Positions 956-12,873 are shown, numbered from the stretch's first letter. The stretch is DNA of 12,873 nucleotides from Minisyncoccota bacterium (GCA_035541855.1 DATKMM010000022.1:1-12873), one strand, 5' to 3'. The notes: generated by a model from the sequence alone, not told the origin. Numbers and translations are program-made.

Positions 956-1683
956 GCCGCGACGCTGAACGGGCCAGGTTGCTTTCGGAGCTGGCGCACG
1001 AGTTCCAGACGCCGATCGCCATCCTGAAAAGCAGCATCGAAGCGCTGGCGGAGTCCGGCAGCGCCGGTGCCAACGCCAATGCCAAGCGGGCCAACGCCGC
1101 TTACATCGCGCAGGCCACGCTCGACCGGCTTTCCCGCCTCGTAAGGGAATTCCTCGATGCGGCCGCGCTCAAAAATCAGGCAAACGCGTTCCGCATGGCC
1201 CCGATCGCGCTGTCCGACCTGCTTTCCGGCGTCTGCGAGGATTGCGCGCTCCTCGCCGAGGACAAGGGCGTCCCCCTTTCGTGCGTGAGCGACGTCGTCT
1301 CGATCGCGGGCGACCGGGACAAGCTGAAGCAGGTATTCCTGAACCTCATCAGCAACGCGCTCAAACATACCGGAAGCGGCGGCTCCATCGCCATCGCCGG
1401 GAAGGCCGTCGGGCGGGACGTCGCGATCACTGTCGCCGATACCGGCACCGGCATCGCGCCGGAACACCTGCCCCGCGTCTTCGAACGGTTCTACCGCATC
1501 AGCACGCCCGGCATGCCCGATGCGCCAGAAGGGAACGGCATCGGCCTCTCCCTGTGCCGCGATATCGTGATGGCGCACGGCGGCACCATCGCCGTCGAAA
1601 GCGAACCGGGCCAGGGTGCCTGCTTCACCGTACGCCTGCCGGCGCTCGCCGACCAACCCCAAAAGTCGTGTTATAATCAATAA
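952..1683 (+). CDS. Sensor-less (cytoplasmic, HisKA plus HATPase_c only) histidine kinase
   Basis: The H-box LSELAHEFQTPIAILKSS sits at residue about 16. The N-box NLISNALKHT, the D-box/G1 ITVADTGTGIAPEHLPRVFERFYR and the G2 GNGIGLSLCRDIVMAHGGTIAVES are present. There is no hydrophobic segment or N-terminal sensory region. The start overlaps the regulator's stop as ATGA, indicating translational coupling. Confidence 0.85.
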   Translation: MSRDAERARLLSELAHEFQTPIAILKSSIEALAESGSAGANANAKRANAAYIAQATLDRLSRLVREFLDAAALKNQANAFRMAPIALSDLLSGVCEDCALLAEDKGVPLSCVSDVVSIAGDRDKLKQVFLNLISNALKHTGSGGSIAIAGKAVGRDVAITVADTGTGIAPEHLPRVFERFYRISTPGMPDAPEGNGIGLSLCRDIVMAHGGTIAVESEPGQGACFTVRLPALADQPQKSCYNQ

Positions 1684-2562: not shown

Positions 2563-3855
2563 ATGTTGACACAGGTCTTAGCGTTAATCATTGGCGTACT
2601 TGGGATGGCTCTATGCGCTCTGTTCGCCACATATTGGCTTTGGTTGCCCTGGGTTATCTCGGTGTTCGCGGCGCACAATTTCCTAATCACATCGGTTGAG
2701 GAAAACACGGGAAAATGGATAAAGAAGGGCGCGGGAAAACGGGGACGCGCATGGCGTTTTATCACGCCAAGCAGAGAAACCGACCCAGCACCCGATCCGG
2801 ATCCGGATAAAAGCTGGAACATCGAGCAGACCCGGCAACCAATACATGGCCATCTCCTGAATGCGGAAGGAGAAGAATCTTGGTTCGTGGACTGGATCGA
2901 CCGTAAACTGCCCGGCAGCATACGTTGGATAGGGTTGCCGTTCATTTATTCCATCCATGAATACAACTTCCGTTGGGAGGTTCAAAGGGAAGGTAAGCCT
3001 GGTACGACCCAAAACGGCAAAATCAAGACGGAAGACGGCTTGATTGAAATGGAAAAACTGAGTAACGACAAGTGGGTGGCAACGTTTGCAAAGCGGCTTG
3101 ACTATATCTACTTGCGGGACGCAGTTTACTATTTCGAAGTGATCGGCGCTGAAACAAAAGCCATCGTCAAGGGCGCAGGCATCGATCAAACGGCTCGTGT
3201 GGGCATGCCGCTCGAGGTTTATATGCTGGCGACCATTCGCGTCGTCAATCCTTATCGCGCACTGTTCCTCGTCCATGATTGGCTGGAATCGACTTTTGAC
3301 CTATTACGGCCGAACGTCAGGTCGTGGATCGCTGCGAACTCCTACGAAGATGTCGTCGGCAAACCCGAAGTCGCCGAGCGGGAATATGACCAGTTCCTGA
3401 AGCAAAGCAATGTTCCCGATGGGCTCATACCACCGGGAACGCCGCCGGATAAAATGCCGAAGGCAATTGGTGCGTACATTGAGTGCACCTATGGTGTACG
3501 GGAAAAACGAATCGCATTTGACGATGTCATCCCGCCGGAAGAATACACCCAAGCAACCGTGAGGCGGATGGAGGCTGAGCAGAACAGAAATGCCACCATC
3601 ACCAACGCCGAAGCGGAACGCGAGAAGCAGACTATCATAGCGCAAGGCGAAGCCAATCGGATTGCTACCGTCACTGCGGCAATCGCCGCAGGTGGCGACC
3701 TCGCTATGGAGTTACGGCGGCTCGAAGCACTTGAGTCTGTCGGGAATAATGGCAATATGGTCGTGGTGAGCGACAAAGGCGCTCAAATGCTCATTAATAC
3801 GAATACGGCCAAACAACCCAGGCTTATTGAGCCGGGAAAGGAGAAGAAAGAATGA
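2563..3855 (+). CDS. SPFH/band-7 (stomatin/flotillin/HflKC-like) membrane protein with a long N-terminal extension
   Basis: A Shine-Dalgarno AAAGGAG (2551-2557) sits 5 nt before ATG 2563. The ORF track's start at 2557 is an in-frame GTG two codons upstream. The N-terminal TM segment is LTQVLALIIGVLGMALCALFATYWLWLPWVISVF. The SPFH core reads LEVYMLATIRVVNPYRALFLVHDW…LRPNVRSWIAANSYEDVVG … YGVREKRIAFDDVIPPEEYTQATVRRMEAEQNRNATITNAEAEREKQTIIAQGEANRIATVTAA, with the characteristic Ala/Glu-rich coiled region. About 200 aa between the TM segment and the core, including DPAPDPDPD, are not typical of the family. Confidence 0.8.
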   Translation: MLTQVLALIIGVLGMALCALFATYWLWLPWVISVFAAHNFLITSVEENTGKWIKKGAGKRGRAWRFITPSRETDPAPDPDPDKSWNIEQTRQPIHGHLLNAEGEESWFVDWIDRKLPGSIRWIGLPFIYSIHEYNFRWEVQREGKPGTTQNGKIKTEDGLIEMEKLSNDKWVATFAKRLDYIYLRDAVYYFEVIGAETKAIVKGAGIDQTARVGMPLEVYMLATIRVVNPYRALFLVHDWLESTFDLLRPNVRSWIAANSYEDVVGKPEVAEREYDQFLKQSNVPDGLIPPGTPPDKMPKAIGAYIECTYGVREKRIAFDDVIPPEEYTQATVRRMEAEQNRNATITNAEAEREKQTIIAQGEANRIATVTAAIAAGGDLAMELRRLEALESVGNNGNMVVVSDKGAQMLINTNTAKQPRLIEPGKEKKE

Positions 3856-4649
3856 AGCTCGCGATACCTCCCTTCGCCAAGGGACATCTAGTCCGTCACG
3901 TATTTGCGATCATTTTTTGGCCAGTTTTGATGCTGGCTCTCGCAACCTGGACCATGAAAACGTTTCTTGGCCAGCATGGCCACGGAACTATTCTGGCTGG
4001 TGGCATCATCGCTCTCGTGCTAATATTCCTCGTCGTCGTTGCGTGGATCATCATTAGCATGATTGGGAAAGCATGGAACCAGAACACTTCAATGGCTGAG
4101 GCGGACGACGAGACCGAAGAGAAAACCGCCGACAAAGCGCAACCACACGGGTCAAAGCTGAAGAAGATGATTTGGGCTATGGTGGTAATAGCCATAATTT
4201 CGACTTTTACCATCAAAACGCTTCAGCTCAAACGGGGCGATGCGATATTGCCTCAACCGGGAGCGCTCTGTTCCGGTAGGGATGGCGATGCAATTGATTT
4301 CGATTATTCTGCCTTCGCAAAACGGAGGTTAGTAATCGACGTCCCGTCCACGACCGAAGGGACGGGATGCTTCTCCATGTTCGATCTTCCAAAGGCATGG
4401 GGTATGCGCGCGCGCTTCCGGCGCCTCGGCGACGATCCCGACACTTACCTGTACTTTATGGTCCCGGGCGGTGCAATACAGGGGCCATTTGGCAAGGGCG
4501 ACGTCGTGAACCTGCCCGCCGTGCCAACGCTCTGGATACAAGCAACCAAGAAGGGCACCCGCATTGAATTCTGGTCGGATGCGTTACTGCGGACACCGGC
4601 CAGTACCACGACCCCTCCTCCGGAGCCGGCCACCCCTGCTAGACAGTAA
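3852..4649 (+). CDS. 3-TM membrane protein translationally coupled to the SPFH gene; possible NfeD-like partner (unverified)
   Basis: GAAAGGAG lies 7 nt upstream of ATG 3852, which overlaps the SPFH stop as ATGA. It has three hydrophobic helices (FAIIFWPVLMLALATW; ILAGGIIALVLIFLVVVAWIIISMI; MIWAMVVIAIISTFTI). A roughly 130-aa C-terminal soluble domain, possibly beta-rich, ends in a Pro/Thr-rich tail. SPFH genes commonly pair with NfeD-type membrane proteins, but no NfeD motif was recognised directly. Confidence 0.7.
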   Translation: MKLAIPPFAKGHLVRHVFAIIFWPVLMLALATWTMKTFLGQHGHGTILAGGIIALVLIFLVVVAWIIISMIGKAWNQNTSMAEADDETEEKTADKAQPHGSKLKKMIWAMVVIAIISTFTIKTLQLKRGDAILPQPGALCSGRDGDAIDFDYSAFAKRRLVIDVPSTTEGTGCFSMFDLPKAWGMRARFRRLGDDPDTYLYFMVPGGAIQGPFGKGDVVNLPAVPTLWIQATKKGTRIEFWSDALLRTPASTTTPPPEPATPARQ

Positions 4650-4709: not shown

Positions 4710-4713
4710 GTAC

Positions 4714-4740
4714 AAAAAGACCCCGCGAAGGGGCCTTTTT
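4714..4740. terminator. Small bidirectional terminator-like hairpin serving the convergent minus-strand operon
   Basis: AAAAA-GA-CCCC-GCGAA-GGGG-CC-TTTTT has a 4-bp GC stem and a 5-nt loop flanked by an A5 and a T5 run. It lies 26 nt beyond the minus-strand pilin gene's stop at 4766. Confidence 0.5.
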
Positions 4741-4765
4741 GAGATAGCTTCGTGAAACCTGAAAG

Positions 4766-5161
4766 TTAACAAGTCCCGATACTGCCCGAAGCGCCGAGGA
4801 AGCTCGCCACGATCAACGGGATCGCGCGGGCCAAGAGCGCCACGCCGACCGCGATAGCCGCATAGAGCAGCGTGCTGCCGGCACCCTTCACCTTCTCCGG
4901 ATCGCCTGCGGCGGTCAAATATTTGAACGCGGCGACGATAATGAAGATGACGGCGAGCGCGACCAGGAAATAGAACAGCCAGCTGAAGACGACGCAGACC
5001 GTATTGAGGACGCCCTGAATGCTCGTGATCTGGCCCTGCGGAACCGTGCTCTGTACTGGAGGAGCCGGCTGGGGGATGTTCTGCGCCGATGCCAAGACCG
5101 GCAACGCCAGGGACAAGATCGGAAGCCCGAACTCCTTCGCGAAATTGATTGCTTTTTTCAT
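4766..5161 (-). CDS. TrbC/VirB2-like pilin paralog 1 (secreted two-helix membrane protein, 131 aa from ATG 5161)
   Basis: The signal peptide MKKAINFAKEFGLPILSLALPVLASA is followed by a Q/P-rich variable segment. The conserved core is VCVVFSWLFYFLVALAVIFIIVAAFKYLTAAGDPEKVKGAGSTLLYAAIAVGVALLARAIPLIVASFLGASGSIGTC, two TM helices around a short loop with a C-terminal Cys. It resembles VirB2 in the …NNICTFI… and …ASFLGKTLTGGG elements. The track start at 5167 is a GTG two codons upstream of the ATG. Confidence 0.8.
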   Translation of the reverse strand: MKKAINFAKEFGLPILSLALPVLASAQNIPQPAPPVQSTVPQGQITSIQGVLNTVCVVFSWLFYFLVALAVIFIIVAAFKYLTAAGDPEKVKGAGSTLLYAAIAVGVALLARAIPLIVASFLGASGSIGTC

Positions 5162-5217
5162 AAACACGTAGGATTTTCGACCTTTCAGGATGCCGTTTCA
5201 GTATACCATTTCCAACG

Positions 5218-5676
5218 CTAACACGCCAGGAAGCCCCCTCCCCCGAAGCCGCCTCCGGACGAAGAACCCGCGCCGAGGAAACTCGCGACAATGCTCGGAA
5301 TGGCTTTCGCAAGGAGTGCCACCGCTACCGCGATAGCCGCATACATCAGCGTGTTGTTGGCGCTCTTCACCTTTTCGGCCTCGCCCGAGCTCGTCAGATA
5401 CTTGTAAGCGCCGACCACGACGAAGACGACCGCCAAGACGATAAGACCGTAGAACATCCAGCTGAAGACGGTGCAGCCGAAGTTGAGCACGCTTTGGGTC
5501 GAAACGAAACCAGAAGCATACGGCACGTTCGTGCCGGTCGGCAGCTGCGGCTGGGCGCCAACCGTCCCGCCGCTCCCCGTGCCGCCCGTTGGAGCAAATG
5601 CTCCAGCCGAAAGAGGTATCGCCAAAGACAAAATCGAAATGCCGAATTCTTTTATAAACCGTTTTATCTTTTCCAT
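5218..5676 (-). CDS. TrbC/VirB2-like pilin paralog 2 (152 aa from ATG 5676)
   Basis: MEKIKRFIKEFGISILSLAIPLSAGAFA aligns with the paralog 1 signal peptide. A G/T/S/P-rich variable segment follows. The core is GCTVFSWMFYGLIVLAVVFVVVGAYKYLTSSGEAEKVKSANNTLMYAAIAVAVALLAKAIPSIVASFLGAGSSSGGGFGGGGFLAC. The 22-nt block ccgtagaacatccagctgaaga is shared with paralog 3. The track start at 5706 would add 10 non-homologous residues. Confidence 0.8.
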   Translation of the reverse strand: MEKIKRFIKEFGISILSLAIPLSAGAFAPTGGTGSGGTVGAQPQLPTGTNVPYASGFVSTQSVLNFGCTVFSWMFYGLIVLAVVFVVVGAYKYLTSSGEAEKVKSANNTLMYAAIAVAVALLAKAIPSIVASFLGAGSSSGGGFGGGGFLAC

Positions 5677-5699
5677 AAGAATTTTAGTATTCCGACCTT

Positions 5700-6041
5700 T
5701 TAACATGCCAGGAAGCTTCCGCTCGTCGCCTTCGCGCCAAGGAGGCTTGCCACGATCGCCGGAATTCCCTTCGCGAGAAGCGCCACCGCGATAGCAATGG
5801 CGGCATATAGGATCATCTTGTTCGCCTTACTGACTTTTTCCGCCTCGCCGTTCGCCGTCGCATAATTATATGCGGCGACCACGATCATGATGAGCGACAG
5901 GACGATGAGCCCGTAGAACATCCAGCTGAAGATCGTGCACATGAACTGCAATAATTCCTGGGTAGTGGTGATGGGCGGTTTAAAGCTCAGAGAGGAACCG
6001 CTGCTAGTAGCCTGTGCAAATGCCTTGGAGACGAATGTCAT
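5700..6041 (-). CDS. TrbC/VirB2-like pilin paralog 3, lacking a canonical signal-peptide N-region (113 aa from ATG 6041)
   Basis: MTFVSKAFAQATSSG… is followed by the core MCTIFSWMFYGLIVLSLIMIVVAAYNYATANGEAEKVSKANKMILYAAIAIAVALLAKGIPAIVASLLGAKATSGSFLAC. The ATG sits 1 nt after paralog 4's TAATAA double stop. The 28-codon upstream extension in the track overlaps paralog 4 out of frame and is not hydrophobic. Confidence 0.6.
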   Translation of the reverse strand: MTFVSKAFAQATSSGSSLSFKPPITTTQELLQFMCTIFSWMFYGLIVLSLIMIVVAAYNYATANGEAEKVSKANKMILYAAIAIAVALLAKGIPAIVASLLGAKATSGSFLAC

Positions 6042-6045
6042 TTTA

Positions 6046-6450
6046 TTATTTACCGCCGAATAGATTTTTAATGATGGACACGATGCCGCTCGCCAAGACC
6101 ACCACGGCAAAACCGATGGCCGCATACATCAATGTCTTTCGACCATTTGCGAACTTCTCGGGACTGCCGCCTGCCGTGATCATCTGGAATCCGCCGATGA
6201 GCGCCATAACGGCAACCAGCGGTATGGCGATCATGACCAAAAAATTGGAGATCGCCGCCACAACAGCCTGAAAGTTATTGATAGAACCGAGAGGATTGGG
6301 GAGGGAAACGGAGGTCTGGCTTCCAGTTCCACTCGCATTACCGCCGCCAATCGTACCCTGCTGCGCAGATGCGTACCGCACCAAACCAATTCCGAACAAC
6401 CAAGCGGCCACCCCGACCCTTCGCAATAGCTTTTCCGGCATTGGATTCAT
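6046..6450 (-). CDS. TrbC/VirB2-like pilin paralog 4 (divergent, no C-terminal Cys)
   Basis: The signal peptide is M(NPM)PEKLLRRVGVAAWLFGIGLVRYASA, then a G/S/T-rich segment. The core is FQAVVAAISNFLVMIAIPLVAVMALIGGFQMITAGGSPEKFANGRKTLMYAAIGFAVVVLASGIVSIIKNLFGGK. Candidate starts are ATG 6450 or 6441, or GTG 6471, which overlaps the preceding gene's stop as GTGA. Confidence 0.7.
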   Translation of the reverse strand: MNPMPEKLLRRVGVAAWLFGIGLVRYASAQQGTIGGGNASGTGSQTSVSLPNPLGSINNFQAVVAAISNFLVMIAIPLVAVMALIGGFQMITAGGSPEKFANGRKTLMYAAIGFAVVVLASGIVSIIKNLFGGK

Positions 6451-6467
6451 TATAGCAGATTCCCGCT

Positions 6468-6983
6468 TCACTGGGGCTGGAAGGCGCCGGCGGCACAGAA
6501 GCTCAACCCGAGGTTCACGCCGGCGTAGTCCGGATCAACATCTATCGTCGTCCCGACCTTGACGTTCAACTTGCACGCATCGGCCTGCGAAATACCAAGC
6601 GCCTGAAGGAACGCCTGTTCCGCCTCGGCGCGGACGGTCTCGAACGGCGCGGCTTCGATGAGAATATTGAAACTGCTGTCGGGCGCATAATAAGTAATGT
6701 TGTAAGTGCTGGTCTGCTCGATAAGGATGGCCGTATGGTCGGCGCTTACCTGCCGGGTGGTGTTATAGAAATTGTTCATGACGACGCCTCCCTCCGGCGT
6801 CCCGATGGTCAGCGTCGCCCCGGTTGGCGGCGTGAATGGCGCCGTACCGGTCGCAACCGGCGGCAAGGTTCCCGTCGTTCCGCCGCCGCCCGCGGGCGAC
6901 GACCCGCCGCGAAGAACGAAGAACAGCGCCCCAGCGGCGATGGCGATGACTACAACGGTTCCGATGATGATTGTTTTTCTCAT
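6468..6983 (-). CDS. Membrane-anchored extracytoplasmic protein of unknown function (171 aa)
   Basis: An N-terminal TM anchor TIIIGTVVVIAIAAGALFFVL is followed by a G/T/P-rich linker (SSPAGGGGTTGTLPPVATGTAPFTPPTGATLTIGT) and a roughly 110-aa globular region with two Cys. It lies 6 nt after the fusion gene, overlaps paralog 4's GTG, and shows good high-GC codon bias. No family was recognised. Confidence 0.65.
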   Translation of the reverse strand: MRKTIIIGTVVVIAIAAGALFFVLRGGSSPAGGGGTTGTLPPVATGTAPFTPPTGATLTIGTPEGGVVMNNFYNTTRQVSADHTAILIEQTSTYNITYYAPDSSFNILIEAAPFETVRAEAEQAFLQALGISQADACKLNVKVGTTIDVDPDYAGVNLGLSFCAAGAFQPQ

Positions 6984-6989
6984 GTTTGT

Positions 6990-7802
6990 TTATGACCCGC
7001 AGGCCTTCCGGGTGGCCGGCCCCCACAAGCTCCAGTTGGTGCCGCTCTTGGAGAGCAAACACGCTTCCGTGATATTGGTCGTCGGGTTCTTCGCGGCGGC
7101 CAGGCATTGCTGGTAGAGCGACTGGTTCGTCACGGTGCAGTGGGGATTACTGCCGGTATAACGATTGCTGAACGCGCTCGGGCAGTTGAGCGTCTGGCCG
7201 GTGGTCGGGTCCGATATGGTGTTCGCGGAAAGGTTGATCTGGAAGAGCCCTATGGACGCGTAATTGCCGTCGTCGCATTTGTCCCCTTGCGCGTTCGGGT
7301 TGCCGCTGCTCTCCACGTTGCAGACCCCGCCGGCCTTCTGGGCATTATTGCTCCCCATGCAGCTACCCTGCAATTGCGCCGTACTGCACGGGCCACTGGA
7401 AGGCGCCTGGCATCTCCCGCCGGTACCGCTGCCCCCTCCCGTCGTACTGCTCCCGTTCCCTCCACCGATCCCATTGACCGCGCCCTGCGGCAGGGCGGAA
7501 AGCAACGGCAGCGAGCAGCTGGTCAGGCCAGGATTGATGGTATAGAGGATCAGGTAGGCGCCGGCGAGCAGGAGAATGCCGATAAGCGCGCTCCAGATCC
7601 AGCTTCTCCCTTCGCTTTGGCGGCTGGCATTTCCGGCCGACGTGGCGTACTTGAGCCCCCCATATACTATAGCGCCGAACGCCAGAATGCCCGCAGCCAG
7701 CAGGGCGAAATAATAGAAATTCACGATCCATCCACAGGGGCCCGCGGAAAGCGGGATGCCGCCGGGGAGGTTGGTGCCGATGGTGATCGCTGCCTGGTTC
7801 AT
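6990..7802 (-). CDS. Fusion protein: N-terminal TrbC/VirB2-like two-helix module plus C-terminal Cys-rich lysozyme-like/lytic-transglycosylase (VirB1/GH23-GH22-like) domain
   Basis: Residues about 20-90 (PCGWIVNFYYFALLAAGILAFGAIVYGGLKYATSAGNASRQSEGRSWIWSALIGILLLAGAYLILY) align with the pilin core, including the Cys before TM1 and the KY[LA]T[SA][AS]G loop. The C-terminal ~180 aa contain CNVESSGNPNAQGDKCDDGNYASIGLFQINLS. This resembles the catalytic Glu-Ser and GLMQ(I)N motifs of SLT/VirB1 and the ES…DGSTDYGILQIN of C-type lysozyme. There are about 13 Cys in all. Confidence 0.75.
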   Translation of the reverse strand: MNQAAITIGTNLPGGIPLSAGPCGWIVNFYYFALLAAGILAFGAIVYGGLKYATSAGNASRQSEGRSWIWSALIGILLLAGAYLILYTINPGLTSCSLPLLSALPQGAVNGIGGGNGSSTTGGGSGTGGRCQAPSSGPCSTAQLQGSCMGSNNAQKAGGVCNVESSGNPNAQGDKCDDGNYASIGLFQINLSANTISDPTTGQTLNCPSAFSNRYTGSNPHCTVTNQSLYQQCLAAAKNPTTNITEACLLSKSGTNWSLWGPATRKACGS

Positions 7803-7806
7803 GTCA

Positions 7807-8271
7807 TTACAGGGTGCATGCGGCTGTTCCGAAACCGCCGATCAATCCCGTGAGATGGAAGAATTGGACGACAGTCGAAACCAGGACCCAAGCGCAAAGC
7901 ACGATGACCACGCCCCAGACCGCTCCCGTGATCGTCTTCTTGCCCCGCCCGACCATTTCGGGACTGGCGCCGGCGAGGATGATCATGATGCCGCCGACCA
8001 GGATCAGGATCGGGGCGATGATCCACAGGATGAACGCGATCACGAAATAGATGACGTTCGCCATCTCCGCGACGAAGTCGCACAGATTACTGCATGCGGG
8101 AAGCGAGGCCGTCCCCGAACTGCCGGTCCCGGTGCAGACGACGAGCGGCCCGTTCAGGATGGTCGGGTCGAACACGTTGCTCTTGACGGGCGCATGGCCG
8201 GCGGCGGCAACGTATGGCAGCGCCAGCAGGGCGATGGCGAAAATCAACTTGATGGCCAGCGGATGTTTCAT
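7807..8271 (-). CDS. TrbC/VirB2-like pilin paralog 5 (divergent)
   Basis: The signal peptide is MKHPLAIKLIFAIALLALPYVAAAG. A variable Cys- and Gly-rich segment follows. The core is CDFVAEMANVIYFVIAFILWIIAPILILVGGIMIILAGASPEMVGRGKKTITGAVWGVVIVLCAWVLVSTVVQFF, with a Gly-rich tail GLIGGFGTAACTL. Its loop AGASPEMVGRGKK is homologous to the loop in paralogs 1-4. Confidence 0.75.
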   Translation of the reverse strand: MKHPLAIKLIFAIALLALPYVAAAGHAPVKSNVFDPTILNGPLVVCTGTGSSGTASLPACSNLCDFVAEMANVIYFVIAFILWIIAPILILVGGIMIILAGASPEMVGRGKKTITGAVWGVVIVLCAWVLVSTVVQFFHLTGLIGGFGTAACTL

Positions 8272-8280
8272 GGCGTTGCC

Positions 8281-9585
8281 TTACTGTCCCCTCATCACGG
8301 TGGTTATGGCGTTCTGCGCGACGCCAAGCGCGTTCGCGGCATTCGACGAGCCGTTCAATACGTTCTCAATGGCCGCATCCATGATCGAATCGATCTGGGC
8401 GTCGTCCGCCTCGTACCACGCCCGCGCCGTGAGCGCCTGGGCCGCGAACGTCCCATAGGTCGGGTCGGTGAGAGCCGCGGCGATGAGACTTCGTCCGGCA
8501 GGCGGCTGGGCCATATCCTTAAGATATACCTCTTCGGCCGCCGGGGTAGTGGTCATATAAATGATAAATTGCCACGCGGCATCAACTTGGCCCCGTTTGG
8601 AAACCGCCAGGCCCTGATAACTTGGATAGTTCACGGCGATCGTGGCGCTGGCCGGCTGCAGCATGGGCGCCACGCCGTAGTCCAAAAACGGCGCCTTCTC
8701 TTTGATCTCCGACATCGCCGATGCATAATCGAACACGATCGCCGTCTTGCCGGCCAGGAAATTTTGCATGGAATCCCCCATCGCGTCGTTCCAGGTATAG
8801 TTCGGCGAGGCCGAATTCGCGAACTGAAGGTAGAAATTAAAAGCCGCCAAACCCGGATTGCTGCCGTCCGGGGCGACGGAAGCGAACGTGGCGGCTGTCC
8901 CATCGTTGCTCACCATATTCGTCCCGTTCTGCAGCATGAGCAGGAAAAGGATGTCCGGCGCATCCGCGATGCTGGCTCCCGAACCGCCGAGCGCGACCGC
9001 CGCCTGCGTGATCTGTCCTTGGGCGTTCAGCGTCCGGAGTTTCGGGATATCGGAATCCAGGTCGTTCCATGTTTTCGGCGGATATACGATGCCGGCCGAA
9101 TCGAACAGGTCTTTGTTGTAATACATCGCGAGCGTGTCGAGCGAAAGCGGCAGGGCATAAACCTGGCCGCCAGCGACGAAATTCTGGGTCACCACCGTCG
9201 GGAAGTCGCCCGCGACCGTTGCCGCCGTGAACGCGGGAGTAAGCGTCGCCGGCGCCGGCGCCATCACCGAATACCATTTCGGCAGGTCGTGGTCGCCAAC
9301 CTCGAAAATGTCCGGGCCGGTACCCGCCGCGAACGCCTTCAGGAGGTCGCCTGCGTACGTCGCCGGATCGTCCTGCAGATAATCGACCGTCACGTTCGGC
9401 GCGACCGCCTTGTACGCCGATGCCATATCGGAAAAGACGGACTTCGGGTCGGTGCCCCAAACCGTCAGCGTGATCTTCTGCGTATTTCCCGTCGGGCGCA
9501 GGCCGAAATAAACGGCGGCAACGACAGCCAAAACCAGCACGACCCCTGCCGCCACGATGACAATTTGTTTTTGGGTGAATTTCAT
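8281..9585 (-). CDS. ABC-transporter-type extracellular solute-binding protein, family 1 (sugar/MalE-like), TM-anchored; no cognate permease or ATPase in the window
   Basis: An N-terminal signal anchor IVIVAAGVVLVLAVVAAVYFGL is followed by ITLTVWG, AAGTGPDIFEVGDHDLPKW (compare MalE ATGDGPDIIFWAHDRFGGY), LPLSLDTLAMYYNKDLF…PPKTWNDL and FDYASAMSEIKEKAPFLDYGVAPM. The ATG at 9583-9585 directly abuts the gyrA stop codon at 9586-9588. Confidence 0.85.
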   Translation of the reverse strand: MKFTQKQIVIVAAGVVLVLAVVAAVYFGLRPTGNTQKITLTVWGTDPKSVFSDMASAYKAVAPNVTVDYLQDDPATYAGDLLKAFAAGTGPDIFEVGDHDLPKWYSVMAPAPATLTPAFTAATVAGDFPTVVTQNFVAGGQVYALPLSLDTLAMYYNKDLFDSAGIVYPPKTWNDLDSDIPKLRTLNAQGQITQAAVALGGSGASIADAPDILFLLMLQNGTNMVSNDGTAATFASVAPDGSNPGLAAFNFYLQFANSASPNYTWNDAMGDSMQNFLAGKTAIVFDYASAMSEIKEKAPFLDYGVAPMLQPASATIAVNYPSYQGLAVSKRGQVDAAWQFIIYMTTTPAAEEVYLKDMAQPPAGRSLIAAALTDPTYGTFAAQALTARAWYEADDAQIDSIMDAAIENVLNGSSNAANALGVAQNAITTVMRGQ

Positions 9586-12009
9586 TTACACCACGATCGT
9601 TCCCGCCAGCCGGTCGCCGCTCTTCAGGTCCATGATCCGCACTCCTTGCGCCGCGCGACCCGTCGTCCGCACCGTTCCAAGTTCCATCCTGATCATCTGT
9701 CCTTTCGCGGAAAGCGCGAATACCTCCTTCTCTCCCGTGATCACGTGCGCGGAAACCACCGGCCCGGTCTTTGGCGTGATCTCGGCGGTCTTGATCCCCG
9801 ACCCGCCGCGACCCTGTGTTTTGTATTCCGCCAGCGAGGTCTGCTTGGCGAACCCGTGCTCCATGACCACGAACAGCTTCGCATCCTCTCCTTTGATAAT
9901 TATATCAAACCCGGCGACCTCATCGTTCTGCTTCTTCAGTTTGATCCCGCGCACCCCTGCCGCCGTCCGCCCCATCGGGCGCACCTGCTTCTCGTCGAAC
10001 CGGATGGATTGGCCCTGGCGCGTCGCGAGCACCGCCTGGTCGGTGCCGCCCGTGAGCTCCGCCCACTTCAACTGGTCGCCCTTTTTGAGCTTGATGGCGA
10101 TGATGCCCGTCCGGCGGATGTTCTCGAAGTCGGCGAGCGGGGTCTTCTTGATGTTCCCCTGCTTCGTCACCATCATCAGGTATTTCTTTTTCTCCCCTTT
10201 GGCCGAATAGTTCACGATCGCGGTCACCCGCTCATCGGCCGGCAATTCGAGGAAGTTCTGGATCGCTTTGCCCTTGGATATGCGCGTCGCCTGCGGAATT
10301 TCGTGGACCTTCGTCTGGAACACGCGGCCGCGGTCCGTGAAGAAGAGCACGTTGTCGTGCGTCCGCGCGCTGAAGAAGTGCGACAGGAAATCGTCTTCCG
10401 CCACGTCGGAACCGATCAGCCCCTTGCCTCCCCGCTTCTGCGCCTTGAACGTGTCCGGCGGCAGGCGTTTGATGTAGCCGCCGGCCGAGACCGTGACGAT
10501 CGCGTCCTCGTCGGTGATCAGGTCCTCGTCGCTCACCGCCTCTACCGCGCGCGCCACGACCTGCGTCCGGCGCTCGTCGCCGTATTTCTCCTTGAGCTCC
10601 TTCACTTCGTCCTTGATGATCTTCAATATCTTCGCCGGGCTCTTCAGGATGAGCGACAGTTCCTCGATGAGCGCCCGCTTCTCCTTCAGCTCGTCGTCTA
10701 TCTTCTTATGCTCCAGCGCGGCGAGCGTTTGCAGCCGCATCTCGAGGATCGCGGTCGCCTGGACGTCGCTCAGTTTGAAAAGCTTCACCAGGTTCGCATG
10801 CGCCTCCTCTTTGTCCTTCGATCTCTTGATGGTCGCGATCACGCGGTCGATCGCATCCAGCGCCTTCGCCAACCCTTCCAATATATGGGCGCGCTCCTCT
10901 GCTTTTTTGAGGTCGAACTGCGTCCGCCGCCGCACGATCTCCTTCCGGTGCGCGATATATTCGGTAATGAAGTCGCGGATCGGCAGCAGGCGCGGCTCGA
11001 TGCCGTTCACGAGCGCGATCATGTTCAGGTTGAAATTCTTCTCGAGGTCGGTGTGCTTATAGAGGAAGTTCAAAACCTTCTGCGGCGGCACGTCGTTCTT
11101 GAGCTCGATCACGATGCGCATCCCCTCCCGGTCGGATTCGTCCCGCAGGTCCCGGATGCCCTCCACCTTCTTTTCAGTGTGCAGCTCGGCAATGGTTTTG
11201 ATGAGCTCCGATTTGTTCACCTGGTACGGGATCTCGGTCACCACGATATCGAACTGTTTGCCTGCCTTGTTCTCCACGATCTCCGCCTTGGCCCGCGCGA
11301 GGATGGCGCCCCGTCCCGATATGTAGGCTTCGCGGATCGCCTTCGCGTCGTAGATAATGCCGCCCGTCGGGAAATCCGGACCCTTGATGAACTGCAGAAC
11401 ATCCTCGTTCGTGGCGTCCGGATTGTCGGCGATATGCAGGATCGCGTCCGCGACCTCGTTCAGGTTGTGCGGCGGGATGCTCGTCGCCATGCCGACCGCG
11501 ATACCAAGCGATCCGTTCAAAAGCAGGTTCGGCAATTTCGCCGGCAGGACCCGCGGCTCCTCGCGCGTCGCGTCGTAGTTCGGGGTCCAATCAACCGTGT
11601 CCTTCTCGATGTCCCCCATCATCTCGCTCGCGATAGCGGAAAGCTTCGCCTCGGTATACCGCATCGCGGCCGGAGGGTCGCCGTCAACGCTCCCGAAGTT
11701 CCCCTGTCCTTTCACCAACGGATAACGCAGTGAAAAATCCTGCGCCAGGCGCACCAAGGTGTCGTAGATCGCCGAATCGCCGTGCGGATGATACCGCCCC
11801 ATCGTGTCGCCGACCACCGTGGACGACTTCCTCGTCTTCGCGTTCGAGGTCAGGCCGCTCTCCCACATAGCCCACAGCACGCGGCGGTGCACCGGCTTCA
11901 GGCCGTCGCGCACGTCGGGAAGCGCGCGCGCGACAATGACCGACATTGCGTAATCAAGGTATGACTCGCCAAGTTCCTTTGTGATCTCTCTTTTTTCCGA
12001 GTTTGCCAT
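9586..12009 (-). CDS. gyrA: DNA gyrase subunit A
   Basis: [28 protein letters not shown] and the [21 protein letters not shown] are present. The active-site Tyr is in [10 protein letters not shown]. The GyrA-box QKRGGKG precedes the beta-pinwheel repeats. At 807 aa the protein is full length. Confidence 0.97.
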
Positions 12010-12017
12010 AATTGGAA

Positions 12018-12308
12018 TTATTGCGGTTTAACGTTGTATTGCCCCGGCCCGCGCAGTTCCTTCACCGCACCCGCGATCCCGCTCCCGATCGCCTGCCACC
12101 AGCTGCCCGCAGAATTCCGCCCCGCATCCGCGTCTGCCGTTGCCGGCGACGTTGGCGGGGAGATCGAAACCAGGTTGTTGAAATATCCCAACCATATATA
12201 GATCACGGCAAACATGATAACAACGGTGGACGCCACGAGGATCTTCCGCTTCGCCGGCTCGCTGAGCGATCGCAGCTCCTCGAAAAAAGTTTTCCTATTT
12301 TCCTCCAT
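12018..12308 (-). CDS. Small single-TM membrane protein (hypothetical, 96 aa) immediately upstream of gyrA
   Basis: A positive-inside KRK is followed by [21 protein letters not shown]. The stop lies 8 nt before the gyrA ATG. The start overlaps the hydrolase gene's end by 14 nt. Codon bias fits. No family was recognised. Confidence 0.45.
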
Positions 12309-12873
12309 CTTGTAATATCACCGGCCGCCCTTTGTCGCTCGCGATATCCTTCAATCGAAAGACGAATTTTTCCACCGGCTCCGCCTTTTTCCCAAGCGCC
12401 TTCAGGAAATCATCCGGCGTTTTATAAAAACCCGGGATCGCGATCCGCGCCTCAAGCTGCTTCACGATCTTGGCGGCAACCTCGGGTTCCAAAAAATGGC
12501 CGCCGCCGACCGGCAGGATCAAGACATCCGGATCGGAAAACTCTTCCATGAGCGTCGCGTCGATCGGCCCGGAAAGATGTCCCAGAAAAACGATCTTCAT
12601 TTCTTCCCAGAGAACCGAGTACGCGGTCTTCGCGAATTTCTCCGTCGACTCGCCCTTGATCGGGAACCCTAATATCTCGATCCCCTTGATCTCATACTCT
12701 CCGGGAAATGAGATGACCGGCGCGTCTGAAAAATCTATCGCGGCATCGGTCTCCGTCGAAACAATGGTCTTCAGCGTCACATCCGCCTTCAATCTATTAC
12801 TCTCCGGGTTCACCAAAATCGAGGTGTCCCCGCTTTGCAAACGAAAACATCCGTTTCCAAAATAATTTATAAC
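12295..12873 (-). CDS. MBL-fold metal-dependent hydrolase (Lactamase_B_3/UPF0173-like), 5' end beyond the window
   Basis: The frame stays open to the window edge, where it reads …VINYFGNGCFRLQSGDTSILVNPES. This matches the family start …ITWLGHSCFLIE…ILIDPF. Further on, VFLGHLSGPIDAT…DVLILPVGGGHFLEPEVAAKIVKQLEARIAIPGFYKT matches the C-terminal …DVALLPIGG.FTM…EAA…VIPMHY.T segment. Confidence 0.75.
   Translation of the reverse strand, partial: VINYFGNGCFRLQSGDTSILVNPESNRLKADVTLKTIVSTETDAAIDFSDAPVISFPGEYEIKGIEILGFPIKGESTEKFAKTAYSVLWEEMKIVFLGHLSGPIDATLMEEFSDPDVLILPVGGGHFLEPEVAAKIVKQLEARIAIPGFYKTPDDFLKALGKKAEPVEKFVFRLKDIASDKGRPVILQDGGK

Follow-up and report, generated by a model that had tools for sequence, protein, structure and literature searches.

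Putative promoters and conserved gene order in a gyrA-linked solute-binding protein and VirB2-like pilin locus of a candidate phyla radiation bacterium

How does a gene for an essential topoisomerase subunit come to run directly into a cluster of surface-appendage genes, and by which transcripts would such a cluster be expressed? These questions are raised by a 12,873-nucleotide (nt) stretch of DNA from an uncultured, ultra-small Minisyncoccota bacterium (GCA_035541855.1 DATKMM010000022.1:1-12873; hereafter the window), in which gyrA is followed on the minus strand by a gene for a solute-binding protein (SBP) and a series of genes for pilin-like proteins. Bacteria of the candidate phyla radiation (CPR) represent a large uncultured share of bacterial diversity, and they need surface machines for life on host cells. 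The explanation that we consider probable, although by no means assured, is a joint one, in which a row of genes transcribed by read-through would be supplemented by a promoter embedded in gyrA and by two promoters ahead of distal pilin genes, with the SBP and the pilins together forming a surface module that resembles part of a type IV secretion system (T4SS).

Gene order from gyrA into the surface module

The minus strand carries a row of open reading frames (ORFs) that extends without interruption from 12873 down to 4766. Its eleven same-strand genes encode, in order, a Lactamase_B_3 protein, a small membrane protein, GyrA, the SBP, a first pilin (pil1), a pilin/muramidase fusion protein, a membrane-anchored protein without an assigned function and four further pilins (pil2 to pil5), after which a terminator follows. 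The junction of principal interest is formed by two of these genes:

9586 to 12009, minus strand: gyrA, DNA gyrase subunit A, 807 amino acids (aa), with PF00521 and six PF03989 repeats.
8281 to 9585, minus strand: membrane-anchored family-1 (sugar-type) SBP, 434 aa, with PF01547 (SBP_bac_1) at 94 bits against a cut-off of 26.

The end of gyrA reads GTG GTG TAA, and the stop codon (9588-9586) abuts the ATG of the SBP gene (9585-9583) in the sequence TAAATG. Downstream of the SBP gene the gaps are 9 nt (to pil1), 4 nt and 6 nt, followed at pil2 by a GTGA overlap if translation begins at GTG 6471, or by 26 nt if it begins at ATG 6441, and then by 4 nt (pil2 to pil3, reading TAATAAaATG), 23 nt and 56 nt. 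An earlier description made from the DNA by itself (the sequence-only reading) had reported both the abutment and the short or overlapping junctions beyond it, none of which exceeds 56 nt. It had also guessed at a CPR-like organism, in agreement with the 100% identity of the SBP to a protein from a 'Candidatus Paceibacterota bacterium' metagenome-assembled genome (MAG). Two other parts of that description require correction: gyrA does not head the row, as two same-strand genes precede it (joined by a 14-nt overlap and ending 8 nt before gyrA), and the module does not consist of a single pilin with the SBP at its end, as it contains six T4SS_pilin-domain genes and the SBP gene is its first member.

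Coding density of the contig is ~95%, and tight packing is ordinary within it; what rises above chance is the retention of the arrangement in relatives. A 1325-aa ORF on the plus strand (7756-11733), antisense to gyrA, the SBP gene and pil1, encodes an Arg/His-rich sequence of low complexity and was rejected as a codon-usage artefact of GC bias.

Related metagenome loci were collected using the SBP as bait. Among those with enough upstream DNA, gyrA lies directly upstream of the SBP gene on the same strand in 75 of 76, a linkage that spans SBP identities of 38-67%. The intervening gaps measure 0 nt or less in 18 loci (TAAATG, TAATG or ATGA), 1-30 nt in 21, 31-150 nt in 27 and more than 150 nt in 8. 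Three relatives annotated with Pfam (L081-L083; SBP 54-66% identical) share the order Lactamase_B_3, small ORF, gyrA, SBP and pilins, and differ in their outer flanks. Synteny downstream of gyrA had been set beforehand as a test of the proposed co-transcription, and in this clade gyrA is not generally followed by unrelated genes, as a refutation would have demanded.

The longer gyrA-SBP gaps of L089, L094, L097 and L135 contain tandem repeats or long, perfect palindromes (19-27 bp) with no T-run behind them, and it seems that small repeat elements have used the junction as a landing site. In L082 (6127-9939, encoding a 1270-aa product), and also in L141 and L146, an intein carrying a LAGLIDADG endonuclease domain splits gyrA, and the order of gyrA, SBP and pilin genes is still intact.

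Linkage of this breadth might reflect functional coupling, such that appendage expression follows supercoiling or growth state through gyrA or benefits from the gene dosage of an origin-proximal position. In model bacteria, gyrase promoters are responsive to DNA relaxation. The retention of gyrA beside the SBP gene in 75 of 76 loci across so wide a range of identity would fit coupling, as would the neighboring positions of the two genes in a Saccharibacteria locus (L031) and a Vogelbacteria locus (L033) and the location of T4SS genes near dnaA in many Patescibacteria (PMC12102498). However, gyrA in L031 and L033 is followed by a T-run hairpin, a separate predicted leaderless promoter and a methyltransferase gene before the SBP gene is reached, and in CPR of the Falkowbacteria type gyrA does not precede the SBP-pilin pair, which instead follows SMC and a Mg-chelatase-like gene. 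We consider functional coupling distinctly unlikely.

Promoter-like boxes, terminator and leader motif

Promoter-like sites were sought with the signature TGnTAnnnT, for which the background is ~4% per 70 nt of upstream sequence. One match falls inside gyrA:

9899 to 9909, minus strand: TTTGATATAAT, extended -10 box in gyrA codons F701-D-I-I, 313 nt upstream of the SBP ATG.

The signature match itself, TGATATAAT, occupies 9907-9899 on the minus strand. The box is present at the same position in 52 of 65 unique loci, and in 48 of the 65 a TGnTAnnnT match lies 300-330 nt before the gyrA stop codon, within one 30-nt bin. Codon choice at the site is nearly invariant: the 46 loci that encode G-F-D-I-I use TTT (46/46), GAT (45/46) and ATA (46/46), codons whose gyrA-wide usage is 40%, 45% and 15%, respectively. 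Synonymous sites in the flanking conserved residues of gyrA vary freely, and a sliding scan of synonymous diversity over the whole gene reveals that the constraint at the box is local. As the scan detects no extended constraint in the last 310 nt of gyrA, a long structured leader was rejected for this region. Translation from an internal start codon in frame, or of a short leaderless ORF, downstream of the box was also considered; inspection of the sequences showed neither to be conserved, and both were set aside. Transcription from the box would not be leaderless, because the next start codon is ~310 nt away. At 9889-9895 (minus strand) and orthologous sites, 27 of 28 loci use GGA for the Gly codon, with G as the next base, which places GGAG, likewise conserved, 4-8 nt downstream of the box; nucleotide-level constraint may thus reach the predicted transcript start.

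The distribution of boxes among relatives also points to a promoter. At the 65 unique junctions, the box is exclusively intragenic in 48, exclusively intergenic in 12, present at both places in 4 and at neither in 1. An intergenic box therefore accompanies 12 of the 13 loci that lack the gyrA box, against 4 of the 52 that possess it (Fisher p = 5e-9), and the complementarity persists when gap length is controlled for by using only gaps of 26-150 nt (p = 0.0013). In loci without the gyrA box, the intergenic box usually lies 7 nt before the SBP ATG.

Elsewhere in the row the signature is unevenly distributed. Among orthologues it precedes Lactamase_B_3 in 33/39, the small ORF in 0/20, gyrA in 1/42, the SBP gene in 17/79 (with a cluster at 7 nt), pil1 in 1/75, the gene for the fusion protein in 2/50, that for the 171-aa anchored protein in 0/30, pil2 in 15/36 (12/36 at 6-7 nt) and the terminal pilin gene in 24/44 (mostly at 39-51 nt). 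The two distal sites in the window are the following:

6449 to 6457, minus strand: TGCTATAAT, extended -10 box of the leaderless type, 7 nt before pil2 ATG 6441.
5200 to 5208, minus strand: TGGTATACT, extended -10 box matching the signature, in the 56-nt gap before pil5.

The sequence-only reading had recommended a search for internal promoters, especially in the gap at 5162-5217, and this search yielded the conserved candidate box TGGTATACT in that gap, in addition to those before pil2 and inside gyrA.

The beginning of the row appears to be served from outside the contig. Orthologues of its first gene are preceded by a highly conserved cTGGAAatTTt-N12-TTTGcTAAAAT, located 6-11 nt before the start codon, which corresponds to leaderless geometry. 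In the window, the two genes before gyrA are:

12295 to 12873, minus strand: Lactamase_B_3 (metallo-hydrolase fold; PF13483, E = 1.4e-15), first gene of the row, with its Met codon just past the contig end.
12018 to 12308, minus strand: small single-pass membrane protein, 96 aa; overlaps the Lactamase_B_3 gene by 14 nt and stops 8 nt before the gyrA ATG.

The Lactamase_B_3 protein aligns from residue 2 with relatives at 72-79% identity. The small gene retains its position and sequence in L081-L083 (41-53% identity), and a Pfam search with its product returned no match. The gyrA product is GyrA and not ParC, as it passes the equivalog models NF004043 (1136 bits, cut-off 902) and TIGR01063 (1098 bits, cut-off 877) and falls below the cut-offs of the ParC models (parC_Gpos, 713 against 813). 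PF00521 covers residues 28-469 and is accompanied by the six PF03989 blades, and the translation includes QKRGGKG, which we take to be a GyrA-box-like motif.

At the opposite end of the row, a single convincing terminator is found:

4713 to 4741, no strand assigned: hairpin with flanking A-run and T-run, probable bidirectional intrinsic terminator (~-18 kcal/mol, z = -2.4), shared with a convergent plus-strand gene at 3852-4649.

A consensus scanner missed this element because its T-run pairs with the upstream A-run and so forms part of the stem; the same pairing makes the hairpin look bidirectional. Other terminator-like matches on the minus strand are weak, lie in coding sequence and number 12 against 8.6 +/- 3.1 expected, such that the sequence-only reading was right to place no terminator before the end of the row. 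Among 30 relatives, 17 have a comparable T-run hairpin after their terminal pilin gene, as against 6 of 162 control coding windows, and none of the 32 gyrA-SBP gaps of at least 30 nt contains one.

Between the box before pil5 and the pil5 start codon lies a further conserved element:

5177 to 5186, minus strand: GAAAGGTCGA, invariant linear motif in the pil5 leader, found 15-29 nt before the ATG in ~30 related loci.

The motif is invariant in 27 aligned terminal-pilin leaders. Its 9-mer core, AAAGGTCGA, occurs at 39 sites in the related loci against 6.4 expected, with ~31 of these located 15-29 nt before a terminal pilin ATG. When the alignment is read by eye, a -10-like box can be discerned 14-16 nt before GAAAGGTCGA in most loci. 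RNAalifold predicts no pairs for the 27 leaders, and the motif matches no known family; the lack of predicted pairs argues for a linear motif and not a structured element. Pairing of GAAAGGTCGA with an altered 16S rRNA tail was also considered, and a Shine-Dalgarno role is disfavored by the spacing of 15-29 nt. The pil4 leader carries a degenerate copy, AAAGGTCGG, near 5692-5700, in the equivalent place. No RNA family was detected in the window with Rfam at gathering thresholds, and no tRNA with ARAGORN.

A rival account of these data would be a plain polycistron, read through from a promoter upstream of gyrA, in which the internal boxes are non-functional and the packing reflects streamlining. 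The gaps of 0-56 nt, the overlapping stop and start codons, the lack of a terminator before 4741-4713 and the ~95% coding density are all compatible with this account. It is opposed by the fixation of TTTGATATAAT at the synonymous sites of three successive gyrA codons in 46 loci whose neighboring synonymous sites vary, by the complementarity of the gyrA box and the intergenic boxes, and by the abundance of boxes before pil2 and pil5, which is at least 10-fold over background and is absent before pil1, the fusion gene and the gene for the 171-aa protein. We regard a polycistron of this kind as unlikely. The proposal that gyrA is co-transcribed with the appendage genes, as put forward in the sequence-only reading, survives in part. 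Read-through is favored by the 32 hairpin-free gaps and by the 18 overlapping or abutting junctions, which fit read-through and translational coupling; a promoter-less polycistron headed by gyrA is contradicted by the frequency of boxes before Lactamase_B_3 (33/39) relative to gyrA (1/42) and by the three conserved internal boxes. Read-through co-transcription is thus likely, although not as the sole route of expression, and the module is probably co-transcribed with gyrA while also having promoters of its own.

Under the joint explanation, a leaderless promoter just outside the contig would transcribe the Lactamase_B_3 gene, the small gene and gyrA, and then, because nothing terminates it, this transcript would continue into the surface module. 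An extended -10 promoter in the F-D-I-I codons of gyrA, ~310 nt before the stop codon, would generate a separate SBP-pilin transcript with the 3' end of gyrA as its leader. A leaderless promoter 7 nt before pil2 may add a further start site, and a promoter combined with the GAAAGGTCGA leader motif may boost the last and best-conserved pilin gene, which is followed by the terminator. A module promoter residing within an essential gene would be hard to separate from it, and this could account for near-universal synteny and for a gap that has shrunk to 0 nt.

On the plus strand, genes for an OmpR-type response regulator, a short soluble histidine kinase and RadC (248-2454) adjoin the pilin array convergently. 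They do so likewise in L081 and L082 and not in L083, and may have some regulatory connection with the module. In its last codons the kinase gene contains TGTTATAAT (1669-1677, plus strand), 6 nt before the RadC ATG, at a zero-gap junction (1683/1684); this is a second predicted case in the contig of a -10 box embedded in an upstream gene, here with a leaderless-type start. Between 2500 and 4500, an SPFH/Band_7 gene and an overlapping gene for a 265-aa membrane protein have a GC content of 49-54%, compared with ~60% for the rest of the contig.

The solute-binding protein and the pilin array

The SBP possesses an N-terminal membrane anchor, and its nearest solved structures are sugar/maltose ABC binding proteins (E = 3e-19). 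Its gene is followed directly by a pilin-like ORF of 130-226 aa in 25 of 27 distant CPR loci, and all ten of the post-SBP ORFs tested from such loci match PF18895. In non-CPR homologue loci the same slot is occupied by a BPD_transp_1 permease (10/10), and a permease homologue is present in 45 of 45. In the window and 118 CPR loci, totaling 1.35 Mb, no BPD_transp_1 permease was found, and neither the window nor these 118 loci contain an ATPase gene beside the SBP gene. The lack of a neighboring permease, together with the CPR-wide pilin, makes this SBP an orphan within its neighborhood, with a VirB2-like protein as its partner. On the surface of the cell, this permease-less SBP and the pilins are likely to work together. 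The array that follows it comprises these genes:

7807 to 8271, minus strand: pil1, VirB2-like T4SS_pilin, 154 aa; PF18895 29.8 bits; the partner of the SBP kept across CPR.
6990 to 7802, minus strand: fusion protein, 270 aa, joining a pilin-like transmembrane hairpin (N-terminal) to an SLT_3 lysozyme-like (VirB1-like) domain (C-terminal); PF18896 32.8 bits.
6468 to 6983, minus strand: membrane-anchored alpha/beta protein, 171 aa, clade-restricted (only 24 homologues), with two invariant Cys.
6046 to 6441, minus strand: pil2, T4SS_pilin, 131 aa from ATG 6441 (alternative start GTG 6471); PF18895 43 bits; weak TrbC/VirB2 match (E = 0.009).
5700 to 6041, minus strand: pil3, T4SS_pilin-like, 113 aa; PF18895 22.8 bits, under the cut-off; aligns with its paralogues.
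5218 to 5676, minus strand: pil4, T4SS_pilin, 152 aa, paralogue of pil5; PF18895 31.1 bits.
4766 to 5161, minus strand: pil5, terminal T4SS_pilin, 131 aa; PF18895 37.7 bits.

The curated cut-offs are 26.6 bits for PF18895 and 27 bits for PF18896, and four of the six pilin-domain genes pass the former. The fusion protein scores 22.7 bits with PF18895, under the cut-off; its SLT_3 domain spans residues 155-260, in which NVESSGNP and GLFQIN presumably represent the Glu-Ser and GLxQ motifs of VirB1-like enzymes. For the 171-aa protein, a confident predicted model was obtained, and a fold search with it returned no recognizable match. When the six pilin copies are aligned, they share a signal peptide, a variable Ser/Gly/Pro-rich stretch and two hydrophobic helices connected by a short polar loop, an organization that agrees with the AlphaFold2 model of pil5, in which helices at residues 2-24, 47-83 and 88-121 correspond to a signal helix and a helical hairpin. 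The pil5 protein also matches the NCBIfam model 'pilin-like conjugal transfer protein' of mycoplasma integrative and conjugative elements (ICEs) at 33.3 bits, under the cut-off of 40.

VirB2-like pilin arrays of 2-11 genes, in tandem or split by one non-pilin gene, are known from Patescibacteria (PMC12102498, Quinonero-Coronel et al. 2025). The present locus, from a Paceibacterota MAG, has the same form, with six PF18895-domain genes between 8271 and 4766 and one non-pilin gene (6983-6468) among them. In Southlakia such an array is essential and resides within a T4SS cluster (PMC10633639, Wang et al. 2023); these arrays are reviewed in PMC12857230. The array itself is a known kind of system. 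We infer that the module supplies the extracellular parts of a patescibacterial apparatus resembling type IV secretion, namely pilins and a wall-cutting enzyme, and that the array proteins may form a pilus.

Within the array, pil5 is the candidate major subunit. It is the best conserved of the pilins, with its 119 closest database homologues at 65-88% identity, and its median identity in full loci is 53%, as compared with 40-48% among the remaining pilins and 51% in the case of the SBP. We take pil5 to be the major subunit on the basis of this conservation, its own box, the invariant leader motif and the terminator that follows.

In most pilin copies, one Cys immediately precedes the first helix and one more falls among the final 8 residues; in related loci (L081-L164), 94 of 177 pilins show this pattern, against ~15% expected, and the commonest number of Cys per pilin is 2. 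Some VirB2/TrbC pilins undergo head-to-tail cyclization, which a disulfide clamp joining the ends of the hairpin could mimic.

The pairing with the SBP also permits a different interpretation, in which the two-helix proteins are not pilus subunits but membrane partners of the orphan SBP in a permease-less receptor or uptake complex, the T4SS_pilin name being misleading here. Consistent with such a complex, the gene after the SBP in CPR is always one for a protein of this type, occupying the position that belongs to the permease in 10/10 non-CPR homologues, and the lack of a nearby VirB4 and the outcome of the fold search described below would also be expected. A pilin identity is supported, however, by PF18895 scores above the cut-off in four of six genes, by the sub-threshold matches to TrbC/VirB2 and to the mycoplasma ICE protein, by the fusion of one copy to a VirB1-like muramidase and by the presence of homologous arrays within the essential Southlakia T4SS cluster (PMC10633639). 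We judge the membrane-partner interpretation quite unlikely.

Several points weigh against the joint explanation as a whole. All promoter calls are consensus matches backed by comparative statistics, and the loci compared, all retrieved by means of the SBP, are related by descent, so that their counts do not represent independent events. A two-hexamer sigma-70 scanner reported no promoter on the minus strand, and a clear -35 element is missing from the boxes. Every gene of the row lacks a canonical Shine-Dalgarno sequence within 12 nt, which bears on the translation of the SBP from a transcript whose leader would be ~310 nt long. A Foldseek search of the PDB with the pil5 model returned no solved pilin and nothing at E < 1; generic transmembrane hairpins (HtrII) ranked first, and short hairpins carry little fold signal. 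VirB4, VirB6 and other core secretion genes are absent from the window and from up to 10 kb on either side in L081-L083; with no core secretion gene nearby, the assignment to a secretion apparatus is indirect.

A bolder extension of the joint explanation would be that the CPR SBP lost its permease and works with VirB2-like pilins, perhaps as a tip or base receptor of a T4SS-derived filament that binds host glycans or supplies the cell with captured host material, and that in Paceibacterota this pair became welded to gyrA through the embedded promoter. Although this scenario is doubtful, it would, if true, make the SBP-pilin pairing a new kind of binding-protein-dependent surface device.

Significance and comparison with known systems

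VirB2-like arrays are essential in the one genetically tractable CPR member, and an orphan sugar-binding partner hints at what the pilins may bind or deliver. From the proposed promoter map follow predicted start sites as well as a candidate for the major pilin, whose gene has a conserved leader motif, and the locus may exemplify how a promoter embedded in an essential gene freezes gene order in a streamlined genome. Neither gyrA nor a solute-binding protein is mentioned in PMC12102498, PMC10633639 or PMC12857230. In the literature searched, we did not find the putative gyrA-embedded promoter, the clade-wide linkage of gyrA, SBP and pilin genes, the leader motif, the two conserved promoter-like sites of the distal pilins or the CPR-wide SBP-pilin pairing.

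The closest known systems are the patescibacterial VirB2 arrays, with which this locus, likewise from a CPR genome, shares tandem, divergent PF18895 genes with a non-pilin gene among them, the association with a VirB1-like wall hydrolase, the lack of a relaxase or coupling protein gene nearby and, in the case of the Southlakia array, the number of six pilin-domain genes. It departs from them in that virB4 and the core genes are not within 10 kb in relatives, in that an orphan sugar-type SBP leads the module and gyrA, with a promoter-like box inside, abuts it, and in that the terminal pilin is strongly conserved and not variable. Family-1 ABC sugar importers of the MalE/UgpB type have in common with the present SBP the SBP_bac_1 domain, surface anchoring as in monoderms, and sugar-binding proteins as the closest structures, whereas here a VirB2-like gene sits in the permease slot and permease and ATPase genes are absent from the window and 118 CPR loci.

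With respect to transcription, pilus operons with a boosted major subunit (pap and fim-type) find a parallel in this row, where a separate promoter-like box and a conserved leader precede the gene for the best-conserved pilin and a terminator comes immediately after it. Here, however, the boosted gene would be the last in the row and not the first, and the proteins are VirB2-like and not chaperone-usher or type IV pilins. Intragenic promoters of leaderless or extended -10 transcription share with the sites described here the TGnTATAAT box without a clear -35 element, the location in coding sequence (gyrA, and the kinase gene before RadC) and, at the leaderless sites, a box-to-start distance of 6-11 nt. 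What sets the gyrA-internal site apart, if its predicted activity is real, is that it is held at synonymous sites across a whole clade.

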